This document shows positions 38,800 through 55,039 of a stretch of DNA of 64,000 nucleotides, in pieces. The stretch is from Escherichia phage 121Q. The position numbers and the translations under genes are program-made. Position 1 is the first letter of the stretch, and each line of letters opens with the position of its first letter. Under the pieces are notes generated by a model. The model was not told the origin of the DNA. It saw nothing but the letters and a program-made list of their open reading frames with translations, and did no database searches. Location: the sequence record NC_025447.1, one strand, 5' to 3'.

Positions 38800-38804
38800 C
38801 TAAT

Positions 38805-40545: not shown

Positions 40546-40558
40546 GCACCCGGTGGGC
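40546..40558 (-). repeat. dispersed CTAGCCCACNGGGTGC element copy (reverse orientation)
   Basis: GCACCCGGTGGGC followed by TAG. Confidence 0.5.
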
Positions 40559-41940: not shown

Positions 41941-42207
41941 ATGACTATTACATATTTTGCAACGCGTGAACTTGCTCGGATTGCCGCACGCCAGGACGGG
42001 GCGACGTTTAAAGATATGGGCGTACAATCTGAACGTGGTAAACGTTGGGCCGTAGTAAAGCAAAGTACAGCCCGATCAATTCAGTACTGGCGAGCGGCTT
42101 TAAAGCGTCCTGATAGTGTATCGCGTCGCGTGGTAGAAATAAAGCACGACCGCAAGGGCAATCGCGTTACCGTGTACCGTACTAAAAAGATTGCAGTACT
42201 TGAATAA
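41941..42207 (+). CDS. hypothetical protein, paralog of 53998 gene
   Basis: FATRELARIAARQDGATFKDMG..RWAV and HDRKGNRVTVY blocks shared with 53998-54393 protein. Confidence 0.6.
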   Translation: MTITYFATRELARIAARQDGATFKDMGVQSERGKRWAVVKQSTARSIQYWRAALKRPDSVSRRVVEIKHDRKGNRVTVYRTKKIAVLE

Positions 42208-42214
42208 AAAGTAC

Positions 42215-42242
42215 TTGCAAACTATGTTTAATGGCGTATAAT
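42215..42242 (+). promoter_or_regulatory. sigma70-like early promoter TTGCAA-N16-TATAAT plus stem-loop
   Basis: TTGCAA 42215, TATAAT 42237, GCGGGAACACTTCCCGC hairpin, SD GGAG. Confidence 0.6.
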
Positions 42243-42294
42243 GTTTTACATCGAGAGCGGGAACACTTCCCGCCTATAACCTGGAGTAATAAAA

Positions 42295-42525
42295 ATGACT
42301 AATATGTATATGACTGAAGTTAAAACCGTAAAAGATACTACCACGAATAAAACTACTTACTTACAGCGGATCTGCGGTGTATGGCAACGTATCAGCAAAT
42401 CAAAGTACTTTAAATTAACATCATATGCCAATCGTTCGGATTCATTCAGTACTGAAATAAAAGGTAATAAAGTACACCAATACGGCACTTATTATTATTA
42501 TAGCCTGGACGCGATTGCAGTATAA
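42295..42525 (+). CDS. hypothetical protein
   Basis: 76-aa ORF after promoter/stem-loop/SD. Confidence 0.55.
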   Translation: MTNMYMTEVKTVKDTTTNKTTYLQRICGVWQRISKSKYFKLTSYANRSDSFSTEIKGNKVHQYGTYYYYSLDAIAV

Positions 42526-42608
42526 GTAGTTTACAAATCTTTACAATTGCCAGTATTGACTTATTTTGTCAGTACTGGCATAATGTATCTATTGAAACGA
42601 ACAATTTG

Positions 42609-42621
42609 GCCCACGGGGTGC
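42609..42621 (+). repeat. dispersed CTAGCCCACNGGGTGC element copy
   Basis: GCCCACGGGGTGC followed by GGGAGTGTATCTAT. Confidence 0.5.
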
Positions 42622-42666
42622 GGGAGTGTATCTATAGAAAAAGTAGTTTATTACAGTTACAATTGT

Positions 42667-42678
42667 GCACCCGGTGGG
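42667..42678 (-). repeat. dispersed element copy (reverse orientation)
   Basis: GCACCCGGTGGGTTAG; paired with the 42609 copy as an inverted repeat. Confidence 0.5.
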
Positions 42679-42775
42679 TTAGCTGTTGTCATGGGGTATA
42701 TTATGCCAGTACTTGATAATGCTGTCAATACTTTTTTTTTACTATTCAGTACTGAAAACTATTTTTAAAAAGTAC

Positions 42776-42803
42776 TTGCAAACTATGTTTAAAGGCGTAT
42801 AAT
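42776..42803 (+). promoter_or_regulatory. sigma70-like promoter TTGCAA-N16-TATAAT driving a non-coding element
   Basis: TTGCAA 42776, TATAAT 42798; no ORF before the next promoter. Confidence 0.5.
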
Positions 42804-42809
42804 GTTTTA

Positions 42810-42890
42810 CATCAGGACGGGGAATGAAATAAGTAACTCCCTGTTAAGTAGTCCAGGAGTAAGACATACGAAAACCTCCCCTGATAAAAT
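42810..42890 (+). ncRNA. candidate small RNA or leader element (copy 1)
   Basis: about 80 nt behind a promoter, GGACGGGGA...TCCCCTG closing stem, no ATG-initiated ORF; near-identical copy at 52784-52858. Confidence 0.3.
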
Positions 42891-42893
42891 AGT

Positions 42894-42921
42894 TTGACAA
42901 AGATTTATAAAAGCGTATAAT
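42894..42921 (+). promoter_or_regulatory. sigma70-like promoter TTGACA-N16-TATAAT
   Basis: TTGACA 42894, TATAAT 42916, SD GAGGG before ATG 42954. Confidence 0.6.
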
Positions 42922-42953
42922 ACTTACATCAACTACTGAATGAGGGTTACAAA

Positions 42954-43565
42954 ATGAAAACTATCACTACTACTACTTTCGTTATGGCTTTTTCTGAACT
43001 GAACGCAGAACAACAAACGGCGGCTATCGAACTGGTTCGGGATCGGGAACGTGCAAGTGAGGATAATTTCTTTGCTGAGTCAGTACTGGAATACTATAAA
43101 GAAACAGTACTACCAGAATACGGCATAGATGAAGCTGAATTGCAATACAGTGGTTTTTGGTCGCAAGGTGACGGTGCATCAATCAGTACTGACCACGTTG
43201 ACGCTGAGAAGTTTTTACGCAAGGTTAAGGCGTTAACGAAATATCGTTCCATCCGTCACCTGTTGAACGAAGATGATTTGGAAATGAGTGTAGAACGTTC
43301 CCAATCGCGTTATGCACACGAAAACACGGTAGGCGGTTGCGTTGATACTCGCTACACTGATTTAACTGTAAAACAGGCGGCGTTAGCTGAGGAACTGGAA
43401 AATTTACTGACTGACACGATCCGAGAATTATCTTGTAAGCTGTACCGTGATTTAGAAAATGCTTATGAAGACCAGTTTACTACTGAAAACATTGTAGGAC
43501 TGATTGAGGGTAACGAATATCAATTTAATGTTATCGATGGTGTAGTAGAATCTATCGCATATTAA
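42954..43565 (+). CDS. hypothetical acidic protein (203 aa)
   Basis: long ORF behind consensus promoter. Confidence 0.65.
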   Translation: MKTITTTTFVMAFSELNAEQQTAAIELVRDRERASEDNFFAESVLEYYKETVLPEYGIDEAELQYSGFWSQGDGASISTDHVDAEKFLRKVKALTKYRSIRHLLNEDDLEMSVERSQSRYAHENTVGGCVDTRYTDLTVKQAALAEELENLLTDTIRELSCKLYRDLENAYEDQFTTENIVGLIEGNEYQFNVIDGVVESIAY

Positions 43566-43623
43566 TTCAGTACTGAATCACTGGCGGGGAATGGTTCCCG
43601 CCTATATCCCAGGAGTAAGAGAA

Positions 43624-43860
43624 ATGATCGAACAAATCAAAACTACAACGCCAAACGTAACGGGTACAGTATCACACTTCATTGGTGACGATTCGCGGGG
43701 CGTTCCTTATTGTGCAGTACATGTAAACAAAAATGGCGACTACTGGCTAACGGTTTACGGTTCTTATTCTTTCGGGCGTAGTGCACACCAAAAGATCCTG
43801 GATAAAGTACAACCAACGGGTAAAAATATCACCGCTGAGATGTTTTATAAAAAGCACTAA
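43624..43860 (+). CDS. hypothetical protein
   Basis: ATG 43624 after GGCGGGGAATGGTTCCCGCC stem-loop and SD AGGAG. Confidence 0.6.
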   Translation: MIEQIKTTTPNVTGTVSHFIGDDSRGVPYCAVHVNKNGDYWLTVYGSYSFGRSAHQKILDKVQPTGKNITAEMFYKKH

Positions 43861-43867
43861 AAAGTAC

Positions 43868-43895
43868 TTGCAAAGTAATTAGATTAACGTATAAT
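43868..43895 (+). promoter_or_regulatory. sigma70-like early promoter TTGCAA-N16-TATAAT plus stem-loop
   Basis: TTGCAA 43868, TATAAT 43890, GCGGGAATAGTTCCCGC hairpin. Confidence 0.6.
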
Positions 43896-43945
43896 ACTTT
43901 ATATCGAGAGCGGGAATAGTTCCCGCCTTTACTGAGGATTATCTA

Positions 43946-44230
43946 ATGGGTAAAGTAATTAACTATACAGTACTAAGCAAGTCATTATCTATTAGCCAGT
44001 GCACCGATGGTTTTTGGCTGTACGATGAAACGCGTGGCATGAATTTAGCTATGCAGGAGAAAACTACTGATGCGGCATATCTTAAAGCACTGGAATACTA
44101 CCAGAAGCGTTTAAAGGAAGTAGAAAACGATTATAATAACCTGAAAGCGAAAGTAGATCATTTCGTCGGTCAATTCATTGACGATGACGAGGACGGGCAC
44201 TACTGCGACCGTTGCGGATCTTACAATTGA
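43946..44230 (+). CDS. hypothetical protein with C-terminal CxxC
   Basis: SD TGAGGA; ends HYCDRCGSYN. Confidence 0.6.
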   Translation: MGKVINYTVLSKSLSISQCTDGFWLYDETRGMNLAMQEKTTDAAYLKALEYYQKRLKEVENDYNNLKAKVDHFVGQFIDDDEDGHYCDRCGSYN

Positions 44231-44247
44231 GTACTGAGGATTATCTA

Positions 44248-44451
44248 ATGAGTGATTTAATTAAACGTATCAAAGAGCTTGAAGAAAAAGAATTGCAGTT
44301 GATCGGGTTACGGAATAAAGTATTCCATGATTTAGGTGGCTTCATTAATGCCTGGGATAGTGGCGATCCTGATGCGTTACCTGCTAACCGCCAGGCGATG
44401 ATCAATGATGTGCGTGGTGTCTTTGATTATGTTTTAAAGCAATTAAATTAA
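44248..44451 (+). CDS. hypothetical protein
   Basis: ATG 44248 with the same CTGAGGATTATCTAATG initiation region as the 43946 gene. Confidence 0.6.
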   Translation: MSDLIKRIKELEEKELQLIGLRNKVFHDLGGFINAWDSGDPDALPANRQAMINDVRGVFDYVLKQLN

Positions 44452-44459
44452 AAAAGTAC

Positions 44460-44487
44460 TTGCAATTAGTTTTCAGTACTGTATAAT
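44460..44487 (+). promoter_or_regulatory. sigma70-like early promoter TTGCAA-N16-TATAAT plus stem-loop
   Basis: TTGCAA 44460, TATAAT 44482, GGGGGAAATGGTTCTCCCC hairpin, SD AAGGAG. Confidence 0.6.
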
Positions 44488-44537
44488 AGTTTACATCAAG
44501 GGGGAAATGGTTCTCCCCACTAATAAGGAGTTTTACA

Positions 44538-44759
44538 ATGGCTAATATCACTACTCTTTCCCAGCTTGAAGCACTGGTTAAATCTATGCGGGAACATGCC
44601 GACAATATCGGCGTAGAAGATCCGGCTGTATGTTTTTGCGACGAAATAAATGATGATACGCTCGTCATTGCAGAAGTACAAGACGTTTCTAACTATTCAT
44701 CGCGTTACACTGGCGGCGTAGCAAAGAAAGGTGATTTTTGTTTATATCTTACTAAGTAA
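44538..44759 (+). CDS. hypothetical protein
   Basis: 73-aa ORF after promoter/stem-loop/SD. Confidence 0.6.
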   Translation: MANITTLSQLEALVKSMREHADNIGVEDPAVCFCDEINDDTLVIAEVQDVSNYSSRYTGGVAKKGDFCLYLTK

Positions 44760-44765
44760 TAACCA

Positions 44766-44792
44766 GGGGGATCAAACGATCCCCTTTATTTT
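44766..44792 (+). terminator. intrinsic terminator
   Basis: GGGGGATC-AAAC-GATCCCC hairpin then TTTATTTT. Confidence 0.7.
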
Positions 44793-44824
44793 GCAGTACT
44801 GAATCATTTAATAGACGGATCTAT

Positions 44825-44836
44825 GCACCCTGTGGG
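44825..44836 (-). repeat. dispersed element copy (reverse orientation)
   Basis: GCACCCTGTGGGTTAG inside an about 80-bp block also seen at 42667-42740. Confidence 0.5.
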
Positions 44837-45005
44837 TTAGTGACTATCTCGTCTTTATGTAGGTATTATGCCAGTACTGGATGCAGTTGTCAAGACTTTT
44901 TTTTCAAATACTTTTATATTAAAGTACTTGATAATAGTTTTTAAACGCGTATAATGTTTTACATCTAATCGGGAATACTCCCTAGTACTAACAAAGGATA
45001 TACAA

Positions 45006-45305
45006 ATGAAAACTGCAATCATCGCCCTGGCTTTATCTGTTTCCTCTTTCGCTGTTAACGCTTCCGTTGATGTACAGAAAGAAAAATTCATTCAGTGCAC
45101 TGTTGCAATGACTAACGAGGAAACGGCTGAGATCGTTACCAAATCCCTGGAACTGGCCCCTGCAATGTTTGCTAATGGCCCGTACCATGAAGAAGATGAT
45201 CAGGGTAGCACGACCATCTATTACGATGCAAAAAGTAAACGCGGTTCTGTCACTGTAATGGATACAGAGAAAGTTACATTCACTGGCGTAATTAATTGTT
45301 TATAA
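45006..45305 (+). CDS. secreted small protein, Cys-pair family
   Basis: signal peptide MKTAIIALALSVSSFAVNA; Cys in mature N-terminal region and Cys 2 aa from end. Confidence 0.65.
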   Translation: MKTAIIALALSVSSFAVNASVDVQKEKFIQCTVAMTNEETAEIVTKSLELAPAMFANGPYHEEDDQGSTTIYYDAKSKRGSVTVMDTEKVTFTGVINCL

Positions 45306-45322
45306 TATAGTACTGAATCACT

Positions 45323-45352
45323 AGCCCACTATAAGGAGTGGGCTTTTTTTAT
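45323..45352 (+). terminator. intrinsic terminator
   Basis: AGCCCACT-n6-AGTGGGCT hairpin then TTTTTTT. Confidence 0.75.
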
Positions 45353-45543
45353 TGTAGGATTGTAGTACTGGTATACTTTGAAAATAGTTTTAAAAAAGTA
45401 GTTGACATTACCAGGGAAAAGCGTAGAATGTATTACATCAAGACGGGGAACATTAAGTAGACCGCCAGTAAGTCGAATGAAAAACTGGACACGTCAAACA
45501 AACTTTGATAAACTAACTTAAACTTTAATTGAGGATTTATAAA

Positions 45544-46026
45544 ATGGCTAATGTAAAATCATTTCTGAAAGCACTGATTTCTAACGATACTGTCATTGCT
45601 GCTGAATTGCTGGCTGACCTGGATAATGATACCATGAAAGCAGTACGCAACAATTTTAACATTGCTTACAGTGAAGCGAAAGAACTACAAGCCAAAAAGG
45701 TAGCAGAACTGGAAGAACAGAAAAAAGCCCGTGAAGCAGAACTGCAAGCAACAATAGAAAGTATTCAGGCGGCGGTGTCTGGTTTAGATCTGGAAGTGGT
45801 TATTGAAATGGCACATAAAGCCCTGGCGGTTAAGTACGGTGAAGATAAGCCGGAATCTAAGCCTAAAAAATGGATTCAAGAACGTGTTACGGTTGTCCTT
45901 GATAACGGGGAAGAACATTTGATTCCTGTACGCGGTAACTGCATTGCGGTAGTACTGGATGCTATCAAAGAAAGCGGTATGACTCGCGAGGAATGGATCG
46001 AATCTCACCGCAAAATTGAAGCATAA
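45544..46026 (+). CDS. hypothetical protein, Lys/Glu-rich helical
   Basis: ATG 45544 with SD GAGGA; upstream TTGACA-N17-TAGAAT promoter at about 45407. Confidence 0.6.
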   Translation: MANVKSFLKALISNDTVIAAELLADLDNDTMKAVRNNFNIAYSEAKELQAKKVAELEEQKKAREAELQATIESIQAAVSGLDLEVVIEMAHKALAVKYGEDKPESKPKKWIQERVTVVLDNGEEHLIPVRGNCIAVVLDAIKESGMTREEWIESHRKIEA

Positions 46027-46047
46027 CATTTAAAGTACTGAATCACT

Positions 46048-46074
46048 AGCCCACTTATACAGTGGGCTTTTTTG
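46048..46074 (+). terminator. intrinsic terminator
   Basis: AGCCCACT-n5-AGTGGGCT hairpin then TTTTT; same element as 45323. Confidence 0.75.
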
Positions 46075-46300
46075 TGTCTATAGTATTCCATGCCGTCAGC
46101 ACCTCATAGAATCGATTCTAACGCATTAAACTGATTATCTGATGCATCGCCCTAGCTGGTGGAGTTAAGGCCGTTAGAATGCGATTGAGAGCGTTTAAAG
46201 TATTTTGCAAAAAGTAATAAAAAGTACTTGCACGATTCAGAGATTAGCGTATAATGTTTTACATCAAGGCGAAACACCTTAACTAACTGAGGATATAAAG

Positions 46301-46453
46301 ATGAATACTTATGAACTGGATTGTTTCACGTTACAAGTAATGTCAGTATGCAGCAAGAAAGATTGGTCATCAAAGGAATTTAAAGCAGTTATTGCGTGTG
46401 CAAAACACGGCAAGACTATCAATGAAACGGCATCAATCATTGATAAACTTTAA
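46301..46453 (+). CDS. hypothetical small protein (50 aa)
   Basis: not in ORF track; SD TGAGGA 8 nt before ATG; downstream of TTGCAC...TATAAT promoter. Confidence 0.45.
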   Translation: MNTYELDCFTLQVMSVCSKKDWSSKEFKAVIACAKHGKTINETASIIDKL

Positions 46454-46461
46454 AAAATAGT

Positions 46462-46489
46462 TTGACAATAGTTTTAAGTACTGTATAAT
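46462..46489 (+). promoter_or_regulatory. sigma70-like promoter TTGACA-N16-TATAAT
   Basis: TTGACA 46462, TATAAT 46484. Confidence 0.6.
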
Positions 46490-46522
46490 ATTTTACATCA
46501 ACTACTGAGAAGGATTTAAAAA

Positions 46523-46750
46523 ATGGCTATCATCATCACTTACGTATCTGGCACTACTGGCACTTCTAGCACTGTTGCAGTACTGACCAACAAGAAAGGT
46601 GCGGAACTTCATTCTGCAATGAATACCTGGGCGGTGAATGAGTTCGGTCAGTGGGCTAGTGTAGAATACATTGAAACCTATCAAGTGCCGTCTATTAGCT
46701 TAACTGATTTAGGTGTAGATCGTATCCTTTGCCTGGATGAATTAAACTAA
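46523..46750 (+). CDS. hypothetical protein
   Basis: 75-aa ORF, SD AAGGA. Confidence 0.6.
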   Translation: MAIIITYVSGTTGTSSTVAVLTNKKGAELHSAMNTWAVNEFGQWASVEYIETYQVPSISLTDLGVDRILCLDELN

Positions 46751-46835
46751 AAAGTACTTGCAAAGTAAATCGGATAAAGTATAATACATTACATCAAGGG
46801 GAGAAATGATTCTCCCCACTAAGAGGAAACTAAAA

Positions 46836-46979
46836 ATGAAAACTTGTCAATGTGGTAAAAAATCTATCACTGGTTTGAAACGGGGCGTTGCTCTTTGTCA
46901 GTATCACTATAACGCTCAAGTATGGGGTAAAGAGTGGGCAGACCAGGTGGAAGCTGTAAAGAAAGCAAAAAGTAAGTAA
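46836..46979 (+). CDS. small Cys-containing protein (47 aa), possible zinc ribbon
   Basis: not in ORF track; promoter, GGGGAGAAATGATTCTCCCC stem-loop, SD AGAGGAA; CQCG...LCQYH. Confidence 0.45.
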   Translation: MKTCQCGKKSITGLKRGVALCQYHYNAQVWGKEWADQVEAVKKAKSK

Positions 46980-47060
46980 AATTATTATCACAGTACTATT
47001 GACATAGTTTGATAGTACTGGCATAATAGATTTTATCAAGACAACTAAGAGGAAACAATA

Positions 47061-47273
47061 ATGGCTATCATTACTAAAATCAAAGTTAACAAATCACTGG
47101 TTAAACTTGAACAAGTGAAAGCAGGTTATAAAGTATCGTGGTGCGGTATGTATCGGATGTTCACCGATATAGACAATGCAATCAAGTACTACACTGACAC
47201 CGTTGCCTCATTCGTTCGTTCTGATGTAGTACTGGCAGTACATGCACATAAAGCAGCGAAAGAAAGTAAGTAA
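47061..47273 (+). CDS. hypothetical protein
   Basis: 70-aa ORF behind TATTGACA...GGCATAAT promoter, SD AGAGGAA. Confidence 0.6.
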   Translation: MAIITKIKVNKSLVKLEQVKAGYKVSWCGMYRMFTDIDNAIKYYTDTVASFVRSDVVLAVHAHKAAKESK

Positions 47274-47364
47274 AAATATTATCACAGTACTATTGATATA
47301 GTTTGATAGTACTGGCATAATAGATTTTATCAAGACAACACATATTAATTTAAGGAATACTAAA

Positions 47365-47688
47365 ATGGCTAAAACTATCATCAACACCGTTTCCCTGGCT
47401 GCAATCCGTGCAATCAATGTTGACGGTAAACGTTGGACTGATTCATATGGCAATACTTATCATTCTTGTCATGTAAGCGTCGAACTGGATAACGGTTTGA
47501 ATGATCTGGCGGTTGAATCATTTACTTATGGCTATGAAGATGCATATCAACAAACGGCGTTATCTCTCTTAAAGGAATCAGTAGACGGGCTTAATACTGA
47601 TGAAACCTCCCTTACTCGTTTGTGCAATGATCTTAATATCCCGTTGCATTGTACTGTACAGAATGTTAAACGCAAAAAAGATCTTTAA
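47365..47688 (+). CDS. hypothetical protein, paralog of 53575 gene
   Basis: RWTDSYGNTYHSCHVS and FTYGY blocks shared with 53575-53898 protein. Confidence 0.65.
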   Translation: MAKTIINTVSLAAIRAINVDGKRWTDSYGNTYHSCHVSVELDNGLNDLAVESFTYGYEDAYQQTALSLLKESVDGLNTDETSLTRLCNDLNIPLHCTVQNVKRKKDL

Positions 47689-47768
47689 TTAGCTTTACTT
47701 TATGCAGATACTTTTATATAGTGTCTGCATAGGGGAAAGAAATTAAATTAACTTAAGAGGATCGTATA

Positions 47769-48038
47769 ATGAAAAATATCAGTACTTTAATCGATGCAGG
47801 TACACATGTTCGTCGGTCAATGGTTGCAACCAGTACTACAAAACAAGTAGCAAGCGGTTATCTTGTATTTGTACACGAAGGAAAGCTATTGGAACGTTCA
47901 ATCAATTTTGATGTTAAAAACAATTGCCGTTTTATTATTTTTAAGCGTGAACAATATAAAATTGATTTGCCAGCAAAGCCCATAAGCGGGGCGTACAACG
48001 TGCAATCATTGTTTGAGCGTCAACCATACACCTATTAA
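47769..48038 (+). CDS. hypothetical protein
   Basis: SD AAGAGGA; preceded by ATGCAGATAC/GTGTCTGCAT hairpin. Confidence 0.6.
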   Translation: MKNISTLIDAGTHVRRSMVATSTTKQVASGYLVFVHEGKLLERSINFDVKNNCRFIIFKREQYKIDLPAKPISGAYNVQSLFERQPYTY

Positions 48039-48089
48039 TCAAAACATCGTTAGCGGTCGATTTAGGCCGCTTATATTGGGGATTATACC

Positions 48090-48260
48090 ATGAACGTTAA
48101 TCAAGTACTGAATGAAGTTGAAAGCATCATTAAACCAATGAAACGTATTGATGCTGTTCCTACACCGGAAGAATGCCGCCTTTATGAGCGTTACAGTGTG
48201 GAACAAGCCCAGGAAATGGCCCGTATCCGTCCGGTTGCCAGTACTGATAAGGCGGCGTAA
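48090..48260 (+). CDS. hypothetical small protein (56 aa)
   Basis: not in ORF track; ATG with SD GGGGA. Confidence 0.45.
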   Translation: MNVNQVLNEVESIIKPMKRIDAVPTPEECRLYERYSVEQAQEMARIRPVASTDKAA

Positions 48261-48261
48261 T

Positions 48262-48471
48262 ATGCTTACTGTACAGGATAAGATCGACATCTTAAAGGTT
48301 AATATGTATGTGATTGATGCAGATCCTGAAAAAGTATTTGCATACGATGATTCTAATCGTAGTCCTTTTTATTGTAGTCATGTAGTTGGATACGTGCCGT
48401 TAGGGTATGTTATCGAAAGAGTGGTTGATGAAGCATACAAACATTTTTTAGAAAATAATACTTGCAATTAG
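48262..48471 (+). CDS. hypothetical protein
   Basis: ATG 48262 immediately after upstream stop (track start 48148 lies inside the previous gene). Confidence 0.5.
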   Translation: MLTVQDKIDILKVNMYVIDADPEKVFAYDDSNRSPFYCSHVVGYVPLGYVIERVVDEAYKHFLENNTCN

Positions 48472-48538
48472 TTTTCAGTACTGTATAATTGTTTACATAG
48501 AGGGGGGAATGGTTCTCCCCGATACTAGGAGAATCAAA

Positions 48539-48691
48539 ATGAAACAATACAACGCTCGGTTTGATGTTACTATCGGCAACGGCAAAGGTCAATTTTCTTT
48601 CAGTACTCGTAGGAGTTATACAGAAAACTTCCTGCGTAATTGTGCACTGACCGCCGCACAAATTAAACATTACTTTCAGGCTAAAAAATGA
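48539..48691 (+). CDS. hypothetical small protein (50 aa)
   Basis: promoter, GGGGGGAATGGTTCTCCCC stem-loop, SD AGGAG, ATG 48539. Confidence 0.55.
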   Translation: MKQYNARFDVTIGNGKGQFSFSTRRSYTENFLRNCALTAAQIKHYFQAKK

Positions 48692-48777
48692 AATCATTGG
48701 CTTATTACAGTTCGGCCCTGGTCGGTGCATTGATCGCGGCATTGTTAGTAACTTATCTATTCTTTATGGTGATTTAA

Positions 48778-48915
48778 ATGAATCCTAACGGTTTAATTTA
48801 CAGTACTCCTAAAACGAAAGCAGATAAAGCGAAAGCACGTAAAGCGAAAGTAAAGCAGTACATCAAGCAAGGCATGACACGCAAAGCGGCATTGCTTAAA
48901 GCTAAAAATAAATGA
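48778..48915 (+). CDS. small basic protein (45 aa), Lys/Ala-rich
   Basis: follows a 29-aa hydrophobic mini-ORF (48688-48777); terminator immediately downstream. Confidence 0.35.
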   Translation: MNPNGLIYSTPKTKADKAKARKAKVKQYIKQGMTRKAALLKAKNK

Positions 48916-48922
48916 AAAAAGT

Positions 48923-48946
48923 GGTTGACTTCGGTCAGCCATTTTG
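48923..48946 (+). terminator. intrinsic terminator, UUCG-loop hairpin
   Basis: GGTTGACTTCGGTCAGCC then ATTTT. Confidence 0.7.
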
Positions 48947-48978
48947 CTATTATATATTCATTGAGAGATAGCTCACTA

Positions 48979-48991
48979 GCCCACAGGGTGC
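48979..48991 (+). repeat. dispersed CTAGCCCACAGGGTGC element copy
   Basis: ACTAGCCCACAGGGTGCAGGAGTGTATCTAT. Confidence 0.55.
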
Positions 48992-49138
48992 AGGAGTGTA
49001 TCTATTGTATAATGATTGAGTACTGAAAACTATTTTAAAGTATTTGATAAAAAGTACTTGCAAACTATCTCAATGAGCGTATAATGTTTTATATCGCAAG
49101 GGGAAACGGTTTCCTCTCCAAATAAAAGGAATACCAAA

Positions 49139-49477
49139 ATGATCTCTATCGCTCAATCTAACTTTGAAAACGAAATCATCGCTCAGGCACTGCGTTTAAA
49201 TGATGGTCGGGCCGAAATCAATTACGGTTTCAATAGTGGTGGATGTGAAAAATATCAGTACTTTGTAACGGCTGATGGCTGTGTCCTGGGTATCAATACA
49301 GTTATTGTAAACATTCAGAAAATTAATTTCAATGATCCAGACGATAGCCAGTTTTACATCACGGGCGTAGACGTGAACTATGAGGATGACTCACTAACTG
49401 ATGATCACACTGGCGAGAAGTTAGAAAGTGCATACGGTGAAGATGATTATCAGTCAGTACCAGAAGATTTTGAATAA
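49139..49477 (+). CDS. hypothetical acidic protein
   Basis: promoter, GGGGAAACGGTTTCCTC stem-loop, SD AAGGA. Confidence 0.6.
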   Translation: MISIAQSNFENEIIAQALRLNDGRAEINYGFNSGGCEKYQYFVTADGCVLGINTVIVNIQKINFNDPDDSQFYITGVDVNYEDDSLTDDHTGEKLESAYGEDDYQSVPEDFE

Positions 49478-49491
49478 TATTAAAAAATAGT

Positions 49492-49519
49492 TTGACAATA
49501 GTTTTTAGTACTGTATAAT
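49492..49519 (+). promoter_or_regulatory. sigma70-like early promoter TTGACA-N16-TATAAT plus stem-loop
   Basis: TTGACA 49492, TATAAT 49514, GGGGAGAATAGTTCTCCCC hairpin. Confidence 0.65.
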
Positions 49520-49572
49520 TAATTACATCAAGGGGAGAATAGTTCTCCCCACTAACAGAGAGAGAAAACAAA

Positions 49573-49785
49573 ATGGCTAATATCCGCACTGTACTGAAAA
49601 ATGCAAAACAAGTTTTATTTTCTGATCATGAAAATTTCAACAAGGATATCACTGGCGTTCGGAATATCAAAGATGTAAAAAATGTTATGGGTATCTATTG
49701 CAATATGAAACGTGTTGGCACGTTCGGCGATAAAGTACTATACCAGGCAGGGGATTACAATTTTACACTGACTATCATTAACTAA
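49573..49785 (+). CDS. hypothetical protein
   Basis: 70-aa ORF after promoter/stem-loop/SD. Confidence 0.6.
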   Translation: MANIRTVLKNAKQVLFSDHENFNKDITGVRNIKDVKNVMGIYCNMKRVGTFGDKVLYQAGDYNFTLTIIN

Positions 49786-49876
49786 AAATATTATCACAGT
49801 ACTATTGACAACGTTTGATAGTACTGGCATAATAACTTTTATCAAGACAACGCATATTAATTTAAGGAATACTAAA

Positions 49877-50056
49877 ATGGCTATTATCGCAAAAACTGAA
49901 ATCATCGGCCTGGATTCTATCATCATGACGTTTGAAGATCAAAAAGGGATGTATGTAGTTTCCTATGGTGATTATGTTCGGGAGTATGAAACAGTAGACG
50001 AAGCCTTTGAAAGTTACATTCGCCAGGTTAATAAAGCATACGACGATTACCGCTAA
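49877..50056 (+). CDS. hypothetical small protein (59 aa)
   Basis: ATG 49877 with the same AAGGAATACTAAAATGGCT initiation region as the 47365 gene; track start 49805 lies in the promoter. Confidence 0.55.
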   Translation: MAIIAKTEIIGLDSIIMTFEDQKGMYVVSYGDYVREYETVDEAFESYIRQVNKAYDDYR

Positions 50057-50155
50057 AATATATTACCAGTACTATTAAATCTATTGACAATGTTTGATAG
50101 TACTGTATAATAAGTTTTATAAACAGTAGTTAACTTAACCTAAGAGAGAAAAATC

Positions 50156-50299
50156 ATGACAGCATTAGATTCATTCATCGACGCAGTACTGGCAAAAACT
50201 GGCGAGGATCTGACCGCAGAACAATACGCGATGATCGAACAATGTCAGCAAGACGGTAAATCGGTGAAAGATACTGTTAAGATTATCCGCAAGATGTAA
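50156..50299 (+). CDS. hypothetical small protein (47 aa)
   Basis: not in ORF track; SD AAGAGAG; terminator-like hairpin follows. Confidence 0.45.
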   Translation: MTALDSFIDAVLAKTGEDLTAEQYAMIEQCQQDGKSVKDTVKIIRKM

Positions 50300-50305
50300 G
50301 ATTAT

Positions 50306-50334
50306 AGCCCACTGGTTAACGCTGGTGGGCTTTA
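50306..50334 (+). terminator. terminator-like hairpin
   Basis: GCCCACTGG-n5-CTGGTGGGC imperfect hairpin followed by TTTAATCATTT. Confidence 0.45.
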
Positions 50335-50404
50335 ATCATTTACCCTATACAATGCCAGTACTAAACCGTTTAACTCGTTAGAATGCGTTACAGGACGTTT
50401 AACA

Positions 50405-50602
50405 ATGATTAGCATGAAATCAGTACAAAAACAAATAGAAACATTATCAAAAATTAAACGTAAACAGTACTCATTAGAATATACAATCAATGGTAACTAT
50501 CATCTAATGAAAGAAAATAATTTTATAGTCATTGATGAATCATTGCAGATCATTAGTATAGTACTGAAAGCATTAATCAATGACAGAAAAAAGTTAAAAT
50601 AA
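50405..50602 (+). CDS. hypothetical protein
   Basis: 65-aa ORF, weak SD. Confidence 0.4.
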   Translation: MISMKSVQKQIETLSKIKRKQYSLEYTINGNYHLMKENNFIVIDESLQIISIVLKALINDRKKLK

Positions 50603-50662
50603 TCTATTGACAATATTATCCAGTACTGGCATAATACTTACATCAAGACGAGAACGTCACTA

Positions 50663-50675
50663 ACCCATAGGGTGC
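50663..50675 (+). repeat. dispersed element copy (variant)
   Basis: ACCCATAGGGTGCACAAATGTAACTAT. Confidence 0.45.
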
Positions 50676-50689
50676 ACAAATGTAACTAT

Positions 50690-50780
50690 ATAATATCGAT
50701 CAATAAATGATCAAAAAAGTACTGGATCAATTTAGCATAAGGCGTATAATTCTGATCAAATCTTGATCAAAGGCAATAAA
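50690..50780. repeat. cluster of five TGATCAA (GATC) sites
   Basis: CGATCAA, TGATCAA, GGATCAA, TGATCAA, TGATCAA within about 90 bp of non-coding DNA. Confidence 0.5.
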
Positions 50781-50931
50781 CGTAGTTGAAATTATATAGA
50801 AAGTACAAAGGCGTTACCATTCGTGGTAATGCTGGGGAATATGTAGTATCATACGGTTTGAATAAAATCAGTACTAGTAGTATTATTGTAGCATTACAGT
50901 ACTATAGTATTTTTATAATGAGGTTAAAATA

Positions 50932-51189
50932 ATGGCTGTTGGATTCGCGAAGGACGGGGCCGAGCAAGACGAGATTAACGCAGTGATTCAGGCCGCTGTA
51001 AACCACGCTAGAACGCAAATTAACGCACAAATAGAATCACTGATACATTGCCTCGACTGCGGCGATAAAATCCCTGAGAATCGCCGCCTGGCCGTTAAGG
51101 GGTGTAAGTACTGCATCACTTGCCAGGCTGATCATGATAGCATATTCAAACGCAATCCCCGTAATTGTTGGCATAGATCTATGAGATAA
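50932..51189 (+). CDS. TraR/DksA-family C4 zinc-finger protein
   Basis: CLDCGDKIPENRRLAVKGCKYCITCQ matches the TraR/DksA C4 zinc-finger pattern (compare F-plasmid TraR CEACGNPIPEARRK...CVECQ); SD GAGG. Confidence 0.75.
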   Translation: MAVGFAKDGAEQDEINAVIQAAVNHARTQINAQIESLIHCLDCGDKIPENRRLAVKGCKYCITCQADHDSIFKRNPRNCWHRSMR

Positions 51190-51195
51190 AAAGTA

Positions 51196-51223
51196 TTGAC
51201 AGTACTGTTAGTTAGTGTATAAT
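51196..51223 (+). promoter_or_regulatory. sigma70-like promoter TTGACA-N16-TATAAT
   Basis: TTGACA 51196, TATAAT 51218, SD TGAGGA. Confidence 0.6.
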
Positions 51224-51252
51224 ATTTTATATCTTAACTGAGGATTGAAATC

Positions 51253-51609
51253 ATGGGTATACAACATATCACGCGTACTACAGACAATGGTGAGATCACT
51301 GGCTATCAAGTACAAGGCAAAGTAGCACAATTGCAGTACTGGTTTGTTAAACGTGGCATTGTTGCACCGGATCTTGATTATGATCGTGTAGCGTTTATTG
51401 ATTCTCTTTATGTTGATCCCGATAATCGCGGTAACGGTGAAGGTACTGAGTTAATGAATGCCTTTATTGATGCCGCCGATGATTCAGATTGTATCATCTT
51501 AGAATGCGATACTGGAGAAGATAACGAGTTTAATCTTAAAGAATGGTATGAAGGTTTTGGATTTGAAGTACTGATTAACTGCGAATATCCTATAATGATT
51601 TTATCCTAG
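51253..51609 (+). CDS. GNAT-family N-acetyltransferase-like protein
   Basis: VDPDNRGNGEGTELMNAFIDAA resembles GNAT motif A; WYEGFGFE motif. Confidence 0.55.
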   Translation: MGIQHITRTTDNGEITGYQVQGKVAQLQYWFVKRGIVAPDLDYDRVAFIDSLYVDPDNRGNGEGTELMNAFIDAADDSDCIILECDTGEDNEFNLKEWYEGFGFEVLINCEYPIMILS

Positions 51610-51688
51610 TACTTGCAATTAGTTTTAAGTACTGTATAATAGTTTACATGAAGGGGAGAATAGTTCTCCCCACTACAAGGAAAGACAA

Positions 51689-51877
51689 ATGCAAAACTTA
51701 TCAAGTATTTTAGTACAAGATGATTTCGGTAATCCTGGAAGTGCTATCATCGTTCGGGGCAATAAGGCAACGTTTGTTATTGCTGGTGGACCTGTACAGC
51801 GTAGCATTAAAAACAATGCAGTTACAATCAATAATGTTCGCTATCGCTTAGATAAAGAATTGATTCATAAACTTTAA
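51689..51877 (+). CDS. hypothetical protein
   Basis: promoter, GGGGAGAATAGTTCTCCCC stem-loop, SD AAGGAAA. Confidence 0.6.
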   Translation: MQNLSSILVQDDFGNPGSAIIVRGNKATFVIAGGPVQRSIKNNAVTINNVRYRLDKELIHKL

Positions 51878-51962
51878 AAAAGTATTTGACAAAGCATTGT
51901 AGTACTGTATAATAGTTTACATGAAGGGGAGAAATGATTCTCCCCACTAAGAGGAAAGAAAC

Positions 51963-52175
51963 ATGCAAGGTCAACTAATCGTTCGTAAATGGTCTGATAC
52001 TAACGAAAAACCGTGGGATGTTCAATATATCGGACCGGACGGTGTTTCACGTTATCAACCTGGCGTAACGCATAGTACTGAGCAATATGCCGCCGCTCAC
52101 CGCGAACGCCTGTTAGAATCTATGAAACAGGGATTCTGTGAAAAATTCATTCAAGATCATTGGCTGAAAGATTAA
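51963..52175 (+). CDS. hypothetical protein
   Basis: promoter, GGGGAGAAATGATTCTCCCC stem-loop, SD AGAGGAA. Confidence 0.6.
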   Translation: MQGQLIVRKWSDTNEKPWDVQYIGPDGVSRYQPGVTHSTEQYAAAHRERLLESMKQGFCEKFIQDHWLKD

Positions 52176-52194
52176 TATATAAGGAGTACAGCTT

Positions 52195-52287
52195 ATGCAA
52201 ATGAATCCGATGATTGTTGTGTTAGCTGTACTTATGATCATTCATGCCATCGTAGAAGTACTAACACAATCAGGAGTAATACAATGA
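52195..52287 (+). CDS. small hydrophobic peptide (30 aa)
   Basis: not in ORF track; SD AAGGAG 8 nt before ATG. Confidence 0.35.
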   Translation: MQMNPMIVVLAVLMIIHAIVEVLTQSGVIQ

Positions 52288-52454
52288 TCCAAGTAGAATT
52301 ATCAGTACTGAAAGATCTGTTTTATCGGTTAGGCACTACTGGCGAATACCCTAAAGGGGATACTGCTAAACTATACATTGCATTGGATGTATGGCAACGT
52401 AATGAACTGGCTAACGCCTGGCGTAAAGGTAAATCAGAGGGGATTGCAGCATGA
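52284..52454 (+). CDS. hypothetical small protein (56 aa)
   Basis: not in ORF track; ATGA overlap with upstream stop. Confidence 0.4.
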   Translation: MIQVELSVLKDLFYRLGTTGEYPKGDTAKLYIALDVWQRNELANAWRKGKSEGIAA

Positions 52455-52600
52455 AAGAATTTTTATTCGAAGTAGTGTTCCAGGGCGTAGGAAGTAACCA
52501 ACTGATTCGATCAAGTGGTTACAATGTTAACCAGGCATGGAATAACATTAAACAAATGTACCCGAACGCTATCACATATCGCAACCCAAAACAAGTTTAA
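52451..52600 (+). CDS. hypothetical small protein (49 aa)
   Basis: not in ORF track; ATGA overlap; followed by terminator. Confidence 0.4.
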   Translation: MKEFLFEVVFQGVGSNQLIRSSGYNVNQAWNNIKQMYPNAITYRNPKQV

Positions 52601-52614
52601 AAAGAATAAAAAAA

Positions 52615-52640
52615 GGGATTGACTCCGGTCAGTCCCTTTG
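52615..52640 (+). terminator. intrinsic terminator, UCCG-loop variant
   Basis: GGGATTGAC-TCCG-GTCAGTCCC then TTTG; followed by GCTATTATATA. Confidence 0.7.
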
Positions 52641-52666
52641 CTATTATATACGCATAGACAAAAACT

Positions 52667-52679
52667 AGCCCACAGGGTG
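52667..52679 (+). repeat. dispersed CTAGCCCACAGGGTGC element copy
   Basis: ACTAGCCCACAGGGTGCATAAATGTATCTAT. Confidence 0.55.
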
Positions 52680-52783
52680 CATAAATGTATCTATTATATG
52701 CTGGTGGCTAGTACTATCAAGTACTGAAAACTATTTTTAAAAAGTACTTGCATTGTACTTAGAATCAAGTATAATGTTTTACA

Positions 52784-52858
52784 TCAGGACGGGGAACGAA
52801 ACAAGTAACCCCGTTAAGTAGTCCAGGAGTAAGACATACGAAAACCTCCCCTGATAAA
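52784..52858 (+). ncRNA. candidate small RNA or leader element (copy 2)
   Basis: near-identical to 42810-42890; promoter (TTGCAT 52748, TATAAT 52770) upstream; no ORF. Confidence 0.3.
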
Positions 52859-52863
52859 ATAGT

Positions 52864-52891
52864 TTGACAATAGAAATTAAACAAGTATAAT
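52864..52891 (+). promoter_or_regulatory. sigma70-like promoter TTGACA-N16-TATAAT
   Basis: TTGACA 52864, TATAAT 52886, SD AGAGGAA before ATG 52922. Confidence 0.6.
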
Positions 52892-52921
52892 ACTTACATC
52901 AACCACAAAGAGGAATACAAA

Positions 52922-53122
52922 ATGAAACATTTTACTTTCGGTGTAGTAGGCTTTACAGTATCCAGCGGCGTTTATAAATCAGAACGCGGTGCTAAAAATG
53001 CAGCAAGTCGGGCGTATGGTTCACAGCGTGACTTACAGGTCGGTTATATTAGTAACATTAATAACATGTTTATTCCTGTTTCACAGCGTAAAGCGGGTAA
53101 CATGAAATGGGAAACAATTTGA
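52922..53122 (+). CDS. hypothetical protein
   Basis: 66-aa ORF behind consensus promoter. Confidence 0.6.
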   Translation: MKHFTFGVVGFTVSSGVYKSERGAKNAASRAYGSQRDLQVGYISNINNMFIPVSQRKAGNMKWETI

Positions 53123-53131
53123 TAAAATAGT

Positions 53132-53159
53132 TTGACAATAGTTTTTAGTACTGTATAAT
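53132..53159 (+). promoter_or_regulatory. sigma70-like early promoter TTGACA-N16-TATAAT plus stem-loop
   Basis: TTGACA 53132, TATAAT 53154, GTGGGGAATAGTTCCCCAC hairpin. Confidence 0.65.
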
Positions 53160-53211
53160 ATTTTACATCAAGTGGGGAATAGTTCCCCACCTAACAAAGA
53201 GAGAAATTAAA

Positions 53212-53487
53212 ATGCGGATTCTACTGACAGCTAACGAAATCGAGCAAGTACTGACTACTAACCTGGAAGACTGGAAACGTGATGCAGATATCCAGGCGGT
53301 GCAATGGCTCAATGATAAGTTAACGCCGGATGATTTAAGTAAGATTGTAGATCCACAATTCTATGAAGATATTCACGACACGGCTTTAAGCGTCGAGGAT
53401 GTACTTGATAAGCACTACATTGATATTGATTTGCAGGTTTACGGTCGTAAAAACTTTATCACTATTCACGACATTTATAATAATTAA
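53212..53487 (+). CDS. hypothetical acidic protein
   Basis: 91-aa ORF after promoter/stem-loop/SD. Confidence 0.6.
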   Translation: MRILLTANEIEQVLTTNLEDWKRDADIQAVQWLNDKLTPDDLSKIVDPQFYEDIHDTALSVEDVLDKHYIDIDLQVYGRKNFITIHDIYNN

Positions 53488-53574
53488 GTATTGACAAAGT
53501 ATCTTAGTACTGTATAATAGTTTACATCAAGGCAGGGGAATGGTTCCCCTCCTAACTAAAAGAGAGAAATTAAA

Positions 53575-53898
53575 ATGACTATGATCCTTACCCAGAAAGT
53601 AGAAATGAAAATTGTAACTTCCTTTGACATTAAAGTCAATCGGTGGACTGATAGCCACGGCAATACTTACCACTCATGCTACGTGTCTGCATTGATTGGT
53701 GACCGCTGGGAAGACCTGGGACATGAAACCTTTACTTACGGTTACGGTACACAAGGCGAATACACGGGCTTGGAGATCATTAAAGAAACTGTAATAGGTT
53801 TCAACCCGAAAGAGAAAGTACTACACAGAATTGAGGATGAGATCAACAAAGAAATTACAGTTCGTTACTACGATGTAAAACGTAAGAAAGATATGTAA
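53575..53898 (+). CDS. hypothetical protein, paralog of 47365 gene
   Basis: shared NRWTDSHGNTYHSCYVS and FTYGYG blocks; promoter and stem-loop upstream. Confidence 0.65.
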   Translation: MTMILTQKVEMKIVTSFDIKVNRWTDSHGNTYHSCYVSALIGDRWEDLGHETFTYGYGTQGEYTGLEIIKETVIGFNPKEKVLHRIEDEINKEITVRYYDVKRKKDM

Positions 53899-53997
53899 TA
53901 GAATCCATTTAAAGTACTATTTGACATTGCCCAGATAGTACTTTATAATAGACTCTAACTTGTAGTACTAATTAACTTAACTAATAGGATGTACACC

Positions 53998-54393
53998 ATG
54001 ATTACTAAATTCTTCGCTACCCGTGAACAAGCTCGCATCGTTGCCCGTGAAGAAGGTGAAACATTTAAAGACATGGGCAAAGATGCACCGAAAGGACAAC
54101 GCTGGGCGGTACAGTTCAAAGAGATCTCTGATATTGTGAATTCACCTGAGCCTGTACTTACAGCAGCAGAACTAAAGCAAGCTCAAGAACTGGCTGAAGT
54201 ACTGAACGCTCAAGATGACTTTTTGAAAGGTTCTGATATTGAAGTTACAGTTAACGCAAATGCATGGACTCACGCGGATCACCTGGCAAACCTTAAGCGT
54301 CCAAGTGAACTGATTCGTAACCAGAAAGAGATCCGTCATGACCGTAAAGGAAACCGTGTAACAGTATACAGTAAACGCCGCCAGGTTATCTAA
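53998..54393 (+). CDS. hypothetical protein, paralog of 41941 gene
   Basis: ATG 53998 (SD TAGGA); shared FATREQARIVAREEGETFKDMG and HDRKGNRVTVY blocks. Confidence 0.6.
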   Translation: MITKFFATREQARIVAREEGETFKDMGKDAPKGQRWAVQFKEISDIVNSPEPVLTAAELKQAQELAEVLNAQDDFLKGSDIEVTVNANAWTHADHLANLKRPSELIRNQKEIRHDRKGNRVTVYSKRRQVI

Positions 54394-54416
54394 TAACTTT
54401 GCAGTACTAACAACAC

Positions 54417-54442
54417 GGCGGGAATATTTCCCGCCTTTTTTA
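54417..54442 (+). terminator. intrinsic terminator
   Basis: GGCGGGAA-TAT-TTCCCGCC hairpin then TTTTTT. Confidence 0.75.
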
Positions 54443-54455
54443 TAGGATAAACAAA

Positions 54456-54710: not shown

Positions 54711-54763
54711 CAGTACTCAAATGTTTTAGTATTATGTATCTATACCAACACAGGAGAAACAAA

Positions 54764-54982: not shown

Positions 54983-55039
54983 TTGACAGTACTCAAATGT
55001 TTTAGTACTATGTACGCATACCAACACGGGGAAAACAAA

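Follow-up and report, generated by a model that had tools for sequence, protein, structure and literature searches.

Repeated promoter-leader cassettes and single-gene mosaicism in a terminal-repeat-equivalent region of Escherichia phage 121Q

Results

Location and gene content of the region

We analysed a window of 64,000 nucleotides (nt) from Escherichia phage 121Q (NC_025447.1), and within it a region of about 20 kb in which small genes stand behind repeated promoter-leader sequences, referred to here as cassettes. A megablast search of window positions 41-60 kb against phage records matched PBECO4/121Q-type jumbo coliphages (Asteriusvirus). The best record, JP4, covered 84% of the query at 89.8% identity, and most other records covered 25–59%; the region is variable among relatives, with 25–84% of it covered at ~89% identity.

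Alignment to vB_Ec-M-J (EcMJ), a record that annotates a direct terminal repeat (DTR) at 1-21525 (21,525 bp), placed position 1 of that phage at window position 39458 and the end of its DTR at ~59.64 kb. Window positions 39458-60403 are collinear with vB_Ec-M-J 1-22291, the block 58294-60403 aligning to 20176-22291. Judged by this collinear homology, the cassette region lies inside the stretch equivalent to the ~21 kb Asteriusvirus DTR (39458-59643, + strand, ends approximate). The DTR of fEgEco12 was determined as 20,993 bp by PhageTerm and restriction mapping (PMC13070987), ~21 kb DTRs are also established for Sharanji (20,668 bp) and G17, and the related phage CBB likewise has a long DTR (PMC5259590). 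The papers on the DTRs of fEgEco12, Sharanji, G17, and CBB make no mention of promoters, stem-loops, or paralogs inside them.

About 49 small + strand genes, encoding roughly 45–203 amino acids (aa) and preceded by strong Shine-Dalgarno (SD) sequences, occupy 70% of the region. No open reading frame (ORF) in the 20 kb exceeds 203 aa, and none of the ten region proteins scanned against Pfam, ten only, gave a match above the curated cutoff. ORFs starting at the ATG inside TATAATGTTTTA were re-called to SD-preceded ATGs.

Promoters and leader hairpins of the cassettes

A consensus scan found 13 perfect (12/12) sigma70 promoters, TTGACA-N16/17-TATAAT, every one on the + strand. Promoter-like sites totalled 108, compared with 67 ± 8.2 in shuffled sequences, and a second scan returned ~37 convincing promoters, with ~25 near-consensus promoters beside the 13 perfect ones, most of them with AAAAA on the 5' side. 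They form families such as AAAAAGTAC-TTGCAA-N16-TATAAT, TTGACA-N10-AGTACTG-TATAAT, and CAGTACTA-TTGACA-N11-AGTACTGG-CATAAT, along with smaller ones, and members of one family have their spacers in common too. Identity within the promoter-leader cassette families is 80–97% over 60–230 nt.

Approximately 22 of the 37 promoters carry a leader hairpin of −9 to −16 kcal/mol that starts 6–8 nt into the predicted transcript, spanning ~+6 to +28, between the −10 box and the SD. The pattern GGGnGAAT(A/G)GTTCnCCC is conserved, and stem variants display compensatory changes (GGGGAA/TTCCCC, GGGAGAA/TTCTCCC, GCGGGAA/TTCCCGC); a representative is TGGGGAATAGTTCCCCA at 53173-53193 (+), which has no T-run. Since the hairpin lies 3' of the −10 box and is followed by CAC/TAA... 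and a strong SD instead of a T-run, it was classified as a hairpin of the 5' leader. Its role is probably to stabilise the mRNA from the 5' end, as analogous elements of E. coli mRNAs are known to do, and not to terminate transcription. Separate intrinsic terminators exist, one repeated family of which is found at 48918, 52612, 55910, and 57834.

One hairpin of the leader type, GGCGGGAATATTTCCCGCC at 54417-54435, precedes TTTTTT and is scored as an intrinsic terminator in both directions. This suggests that the leader hairpin family can terminate transcription when given a T-run, which ties it to the terminators of the promoter(early)-stem-loop elements (PeSLs) of T4-type phages.

Repeated blocks and shared initiation regions

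A self dot-plot of the region yielded 167 repeat pairs at E<1e-3, up to 229 nt long at 82–97% identity. These repeats are far longer than the bare promoter consensus, so the region does contain repeated blocks, as a first-pass annotation of this DNA had proposed. The largest are two copies of a double-promoter block (42740-42959 and 52712-52927; 86%, 221 nt), two copies of a composite terminator/promoter block (48905-49132 and 55897-56115; 82%, 229 nt), and a pair of terminator-containing blocks (52599-52692 and 57821-57914; 96%, 94 nt), all on the + strand.

The identical initiation regions reported in front of unrelated ORFs were recovered exactly. The 17-mer CTGAGGATTATCTAATG occurs exactly twice in the window, at the SD and start of gene 43946 (43932-43948, +) and of the promoter-less gene 44248 (44234-44250, +), and the same 17-mer is present in G17 and W70. 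The 19-mer AAGGAATACTAAAATGGCT also occurs exactly twice, at 47352 and 49864, in front of genes 47365 and 49877. It forms the 3' end of a 105-nt repeat (47267-47371 versus 49779-49883, 93%), part of a promoter-leader repeat, class C, with three copies at 46969, 47263, and 49779. Copy 1 (46969-47045, +) precedes gene 47061; copy 2 (47263-47371, +) precedes gene 47365, contains the 19-mer, and is 97% identical over 77 nt to copy 1 (46969-47045 versus 47263-47339) and 93% identical over 105 nt to copy 3; copy 3 (49779-49883, +) precedes gene 49877 and contains the 19-mer. The ORFs behind the shared initiation regions belong to different PHROGs. Genes 47061 and 49877, considered as remote paralogs since both stand behind class C, were rejected as such: BLASTP gave no alignment and their PHROGs differ.

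An additional pair, absent from the first-pass annotation, is formed by the 16-nt SD region AAAGAGAGAAATTAAA before gene 53212 (53196-53211, +), which recurs identically before gene 53575 (53559-53574, +). The promoter-leader block in front of gene 54764 (54680-54767, +) is indeed duplicated in front of gene 55040 (54957-55043, +), at 82% identity over 88 nt. Exact identity of at least 16 nt directly 5' of the ATG was found for 47365/49877 (24 nt), 43946/44248 (16 nt), and 53212/53575 (16 nt). Under a position-preserving shuffle null, anchored on the 49 start codons, a mean of 0.23 pairs reached ≥10 nt, and the probability of a maximal run of ≥13 nt was 0.013.

Apparent gene-family links between 46523 and 56066, and extended families around 41564 and 43591, proved to be artefacts of N-termini encoded by the cassettes (MFYI..., MTVLKCFS...).

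Single-gene gain, loss, and replacement among relatives

We compared the region with six relatives, JP4, vB_Ec-M-J, WPEC5, G17, phAPEC6, and slurp01. Gene order is collinear, and at ~90% background identity the seven genomes differ by at least 20 single-gene presence, absence, or replacement events. Comparison with related genomes had been proposed as a check in the first-pass annotation; in it, the junctions of single-gene insertions and deletions (indels) were located in cassettes. Of 44 indel or replacement breakpoints, 35 are intergenic or lie within 10 nt of a gene edge; random placement gave 15.4 ± 3.1, and the highest value among 10,000 draws was 27.

The clearest case is gene 47061 (47061-47273, +), flanked by class C copies 1 and 2, which form repeats of ~80 nt at 97% identity that extend from the final codons of the preceding gene through promoter and leader. 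The gene is missing in slurp01, G17, WPEC5, and phAPEC6, where a single hybrid cassette remains; in slurp01 and G17, this cassette joins the left flank of copy 1 to the right flank of copy 2. Junction alignments disclosed hybrid cassettes at the empty sites of three further genes as well. The module of gene 46301 (46269-46509, +) is missing from JP4, EcMJ, phAPEC6, and slurp01, with the junction at the −10/transcription start site (TSS) region. The module of a GNAT acetyltransferase (51207-51638, +; gene 51253-51609) is absent from G17 and slurp01, in which the crossover fell between the −35 and the leader and left a hybrid promoter. The module of gene 52922 (52907-53131, +) is lacking in G17, EcMJ, WPEC5, and slurp01, with the junction between leader and SD. 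Gene X7, present in JP4, G17, and slurp01 and not in the window, sits directly upstream of a cassette and fits the hybrid pattern partly. Crossovers were scattered across the whole cassette, in the −35, spacer, −10, leader, and SD.

The promoter-less gene 44248 (module 44236-44452, +) occurs only in the window and G17, is absent from phAPEC6, and has AGTACT on both sides. The SD/start 17-mer of the neighbouring gene upstream recurs at its own start, and the exact pair of 17-mers is seen in both the window and G17. On a larger scale, a tract of 3.1 kb (51900-55011, +) has ~1% divergence from phAPEC6, compared with ~10% outside it. This tract ends in two promoter cassettes, in the −35/spacer of one promoter and in the −10/leader of another, the latter end (55012) falling within the duplicated block before gene 55040.

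An apparent divergence of gene 53212 in G17, EcMJ, WPEC5, and slurp01 (gap 53214-53479) was rejected as an artefact that the repeated cassettes caused in chaining; conservation of this gene is 92–98%.

Cassettes and genes in common with other phage families

About 250 records from outside Asteriusvirus displayed DNA similarity to window positions 41-48.9 kb, and some 180 rV5-like phages encode homologs of the 47365/53575 family. The allele of phAPEC6 at the 47365 slot is 79% identical to proteins of muut and ukendt (Stephanstirmvirinae), with bootstrap support of 291/300 for its grouping with them, and 33% identical to the window protein. The early region of muut has the same promoter and leader-hairpin cassettes.

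A module consisting of a cassette, gene 53212, and the next cassette (53120-53567, +) has 87% DNA identity to the rV5-like phage muut. Between muut 1857-2370 and vB_Ec-M-J 14164-14674, identity reaches 95.7% over 516 nt and includes ~415 nt at 100%, a stretch that takes in promoter P2, gene 53212 over its full 276 nt, and the following promoter as far as ACATCGAGAG. On the right the identity ends at the base of the leader hairpin, and on the left it decays inside the P1 promoter; the downstream genes differ. Several further rV5-like phages carry gene 53212 at 86–89%.

W70 (Vequintavirinae) has eight of the window genes at 70–84% DNA identity in a different order, with block ends in cassette sequence, and has the exact 17-mer before its 43946 homolog. 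In addition, a Krischvirus (RB49-like) phage has a promoter/stem-loop array of its own, in which a homolog of gene 58807 with 36% identity is found.

Paralogous genes

Both pairs of genes named as paralogs in the first-pass annotation are related. The products of 41941-42207 (88 aa, +) and 53998-54393 (131 aa, +) are 34.9% identical (E=7e-15) and match phrog_8127, while those of 47365-47688 and 53575-53898 (both +) are 38.3% identical over all 107 aa (E=1e-24) and match phrog_6246; these PHROGs are of unknown function. Gene 53998 has its own perfect TTGACA-N17-TATAAT promoter at 53921-53949. Its upstream region is homologous to that of gene 41941, with 104 of 168 columns identical and a distinctive promoter, AAAGTACTATT..GATAGTACTTTATAAT, from the spacer of which 5 nt are deleted in front of 41941. 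For this pair only, promoter and gene may have been copied as a unit. In the second pair, the cassette in front of gene 47365 is of class C and lacks a hairpin, while that of gene 53575 is of the TTGACA/TGTATAAT type and has one in its leader.

The first-pass annotation took the paralogs and the repeated initiation regions as direct evidence that cassettes move or seed duplications. On this reading, unequal crossing-over of promoter cassettes would have generated the paralogs in place. The homologous upstream region of the first pair, perhaps copied with the gene, speaks for it, as does a neighbor-joining tree that grouped the two Asteriusvirus lineages of the second pair against their rV5-like homologs in 242 of 300 bootstraps; moreover, recombination between direct repeats is expected to yield duplications besides deletions. 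However, the pairs have diverged to 35–38% aa identity and their positions are the same in each of the six relatives, which makes them older than the split between these phages. The cassette classes differ within the second pair, and gene 47365 is closer to its homolog in Cronobacter phage PBES02 (Certrevirus; 47%) than to 53575 (38%). The homologs of 47365 were taken from phage records, since a direct protein homology search gave only six relatives. Family 41618 has a polymorphic second copy in phAPEC6, EcMJ, and WPEC5 with 72–74% identity to the resident copy, itself 85% identical to the W70 allele. The second copy demonstrably resembles alleles from other phage families more than it does the resident one, which indicates that paralogs here can be lateral imports. 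The region also contains no recent, highly similar gene duplicate. Duplication in place is therefore doubtful for these genes, though still conceivable. Both pairs are old members of gene families circulating in a shared pool and not fresh duplications. A role of the cassettes in gene-scale rearrangement was borne out by the indel junctions, the cross-family module, and the shuffled order in W70; the paralogs do not serve as direct evidence of seeding.

Discussion

Recombination between cassettes and alternative explanations

The data point to a long DTR built from a series of self-contained modules for early expression. Such a module would typically run from an A-rich tract through a near-consensus sigma70 promoter, usually a 5' GC hairpin, and a strong SD to a single small gene, with an intrinsic terminator in occasional cases. 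Crossovers between cassettes, by general homologous recombination, would delete, insert, or replace single genes and leave a hybrid cassette behind. The partner cassettes could belong to one genome, to two relatives in a co-infection, or to this phage and an unrelated rV5-like phage that has the same cassettes. We consider it likely that single genes of this array are reshuffled in this way, on the portable homology that the cassettes provide. The repeats, the junctions in cassettes, the hybrid cassettes, and the identical module in two families are observed directly.

Several points weigh against this interpretation. Promoter activity, early timing, the recombination machinery, and the role of the leader hairpin are predictions from sequence. 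Selection against broken genes partly explains why junctions are intergenic (35/44), and two of the 44 breakpoints (53214 and 53479) are chaining artefacts. Neither X7 nor the leader swap at 46301 is a simple two-cassette crossover, and reading each event as insertion or deletion takes an outgroup. Furthermore, the points at which identity between homologous alleles changes are no more frequent in cassettes than expected: among ~18 in the six relatives, five are intergenic (5.4 expected), seven lie within 35 nt of a gene edge, and six are clearly intragenic. Cassettes are thus not recombination hot-spots as such; homologous alleles recombine anywhere, and the cassettes matter because they are the only homology flanking unrelated genes.

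The scattered crossovers together with the intragenic change-points favour general homologous over site-specific recombination. A site- or structure-specific enzyme, either a recombinase or nuclease recognising the hairpin (compare integron attC) or a homing endonuclease, could nevertheless be imagined as the mover of modules. The conservation of the hairpin pattern through compensatory stem changes would suit such an enzyme, as would the right end of the 100% muut/vB_Ec-M-J tract, exactly at the hairpin base, and the AGTACT sites on both sides of the 44248 module; the authors of the PeSL studies speculated likewise (PMC2839356). Yet the junctions are dispersed from −35 through spacer, −10/TSS, and leader to SD, and include the hairpin-less class C at 47061. 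Change-points fall inside genes too, and AGTACT is not consistently present at junctions. The 203-aa limit on ORFs in the 20 kb and the ten scanned proteins without a Pfam match above cutoff also argue against the enzyme, which we regard as improbable. Smaller still is the chance that the shared initiation regions are convergent, shaped by selection for maximal transcription and translation and not by recombination. The −35, −10, UP-like A-tract, and SD are all near consensus, so part of the similarity reflects functional constraint. However, identity runs through spacers, leaders, and even the last codons of upstream genes and exceeds the position-preserving shuffle null. Convergence cannot yield hybrid cassettes or a 100% identical module across families, and the junction alignments contradict it. 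Least probable of all, to the point of being hardly credible, is that the repeats and mosaics are assembly artefacts, collapsed or chimeric repeats from mixed lysates. Assemblers can be misled by short repeats, and the JP4 record (PQ330092; 1-3500 versus 20300-22916) contains the whole ~20 kb region in tandem within the record, with the same gene series on both flanks. This internal tandem repeat is the DTR assembled as such, a matter of representation and not of biology. The same paralogs, cassettes, and pair of 17-mers appear in independently sequenced genomes, every repeat copy has unique flanks, and gene 53212 is found at 86–89% in several other rV5-like phages, all of which speaks against an artefact.

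Comparison with known systems

PeSLs, described in T4-type phages, combine a conserved sigma70 promoter, a stem-loop, and an SD in hyperplastic regions (HPRs), with indel junctions located in the cassettes and with mini-circles (PMC2839356, PMC4122927). The 121Q cassettes resemble them (Arbiol et al. 2010; Comeau et al. 2014) in several respects. As sequence matches, they have a near-consensus sigma70-like early promoter with an AT-rich upstream tract, together with a GC stem-loop with stems of the GGGG...CCCC type, and they end at the 3' side in the SD and start of a small ORFan. Their genes cluster in a hyperplastic manner, the junctions of indels and replacements among close relatives lie inside the cassettes, and recombination is spread over them (AT-rich tract, −10 to SD, and loop in PeSLs). 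In contrast, the stem-loop that defines PeSLs is a terminator upstream of the promoter, whereas the usual hairpin here is 3' of the −10 and has no T-run; a terminator ahead of the promoter was seen in only four blocks (48918, 52612, 55910, and 57834). PeSLs occupy internal HPRs of a circularly permuted T4-type genome, unlike the 20 kb DTR of a 350-kb jumbo phage, and the present cassettes and genes are common to unrelated rV5-like phages at up to 100% DNA identity. The 20-kb DTR setting in a jumbo phage and the sharing between families are new relative to PeSLs. Our literature search returned no description of promoter cassettes, PeSLs, or AGTACT enrichment in Asteriusvirus or rV5-like phages, which is not proof of absence.

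Integron arrays, too, line up single-gene modules in tandem with hairpin-forming repeats in between, and their modules are rapidly gained, lost, and reordered. Integron cassettes are promoter-less, whereas here each module has its own promoter and junction positions vary; the hallmarks IntI, attI, and attC were not found, the largest ORF having 203 aa and the Pfam scan covering ten proteins. Lambdoid phages are said to evolve in modular fashion through linker or boundary sequences, an idea reportedly going back to Botstein in 1980 and Clark et al. in 2001. There too, modules are reassorted between phages by crossovers at short conserved stretches that separate genes of unrelated function. The linkers described here differ in being full expression signals, in ~40 tandem repeats, with single tiny genes as modules, in virulent phages. 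The pre-early region of phage T5 lies in a long terminal repeat and contains small early genes of the host-takeover type read from strong host-type promoters. In organisation, the level at which the two were compared, the present DTR is similarly packed with small early genes behind host-type promoters, and its length is roughly double that of the T5 repeat.

Host-takeover and anti-defence functions are being discovered among the small early genes of virulent phages, the spread of which is poorly understood. In this region the spread of single early genes can be read straight from the sequence, with repeated expression cassettes supplying the homology. The cassettes link a 350-kb jumbo phage to rV5-like phages of 140-150 kb, to the point of one 100% identical module. 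With them, the PeSL concept reaches past the T4-type phages and takes in a terminal repeat as well as gene exchange across families. We lean towards the view that the cassettes are a common currency of at least three unrelated coliphage lineages (Asteriusvirus, Stephanstirmvirinae, and Vequintavirinae). They would then define an integrase-free pool of early genes, probably for host takeover or anti-defence, with the jumbo-phage terminal repeat as its largest known reservoir. If so, a gene behind such a cassette would pass between families by ordinary homologous recombination during co-infection. The cassette consensus offers a means of locating early-gene modules in coliphages, setting their limits, and comparing them, and engineered genes placed between two cassettes would be expected to recombine into these phages.

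Other features of the window

The most PeSL-like arrangement is the composite block at 48905-49132, in which an intrinsic terminator, a GCCCAC element, and a class A promoter with its leader follow one another; 55897-56115 is its second copy. The blocks at 52599-52692 (copy 3) and 57821-57914 (copy 4) contain the terminator and GCCCAC element. The double-promoter block at 42740-42959 and 52712-52927 comprises promoter P1, a long structured leader, and P2. Its leader of ~110 nt has a whole-leader dG (folding free energy) of about −22 to −25 kcal/mol and a 31-codon ORF inside. The block is kept across Asteriusvirus and two rV5-like subfamilies (muut 1834-2016 and W70 1464-1720 of the fetched loci), which suggests a regulatory RNA or leader peptide rather than a mere spacer.

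The GCCCAC element is non-coding and has nine copies with an invariant core T..CCCA..GGGTGC and the consensus CTAGCCCACAGGGTGCA..TGTATCTAT. Six lie on the + strand (42607-42645, 48977-49015, 50661-50699, 52666-52704, 55969-56007, 57888-57926) and three on the − strand (40523-40591, 40739-40807, 44802-44870). Every copy is located ~20–25 nt 3' of a −10-like hexamer (TATTAT or CATAAT), and in four copies a matching −35 (TTGACT) lies within the preceding terminator hairpin. No ORF follows the element, its core is not self-complementary, and it has no Rfam match; it could be a candidate small transcript or protein-binding site. Searches of the repeated non-coding blocks with Rfam (E<=1) and ARAGORN found no known RNAs.

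The palindrome AGTACT (ScaI site) occurs 271 times in the 64 kb, compared with a median of 19 for 180 hexamers of the same composition and 107 for the next, GTACTA. It is enriched 10–20-fold across most of the window. The DTR region (39401-59640) is densest, with 136 sites versus 6.6 expected; 61 sites lie in 1-20 kb and 70 in 20-39.4 kb (~6.5 expected each), and only three in 59.6-64 kb. Coding sequence contains sites on either strand and in each codon phase (16/10/14), without extended context, and the motif is built into promoters (AGTAC-TTGCAA, AGTACTG-TATAAT) and terminator stems (GCCAGTACT..AGTACTGGC). The enrichment is absent from the fetched loci of rV5-like, RB49-like, and other phages, which indicates that it is lineage-specific and selected at the DNA level. 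As a junction marker AGTACT was rejected: it is present at the 44248 module and in the 47061 crossover interval but missing at other junctions.

The first ~1.6 kb of the DTR-equivalent region (39458-41050) has no convincing ORF and is dense in AGTACT, with long AGTACT-containing hairpins at 39979-40012 and 40977-41001. Promoter-like sites on the − strand and two reverse-oriented GCCCAC elements are also present, and this part might hold terminus or packaging signals.

The window also contains gene arrays of other kinds. Directly after the DTR, from 59706 to 64000 and past the end of the window, tandem paralogs of ~70 aa (59706 family) have overlapping start and stop codons and no individual promoters. 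There are at least 27 copies in relatives, AGTACT is not enriched, and the layout is very unlike that of the cassette array. At 21089-35291 on the − strand lie about a dozen tandem paralogs of ~270–430 aa with 23–68% mutual identity, an AGTACT-stem terminator after each gene, and orthologs annotated as RCC1-like repeat proteins in phAPEC6. Just 5' of the DTR, at 35700-39400 (+), an array of ~60-aa paralogs (37852 and 39003 families) has at least 11 copies in phAPEC6 and slurp01.

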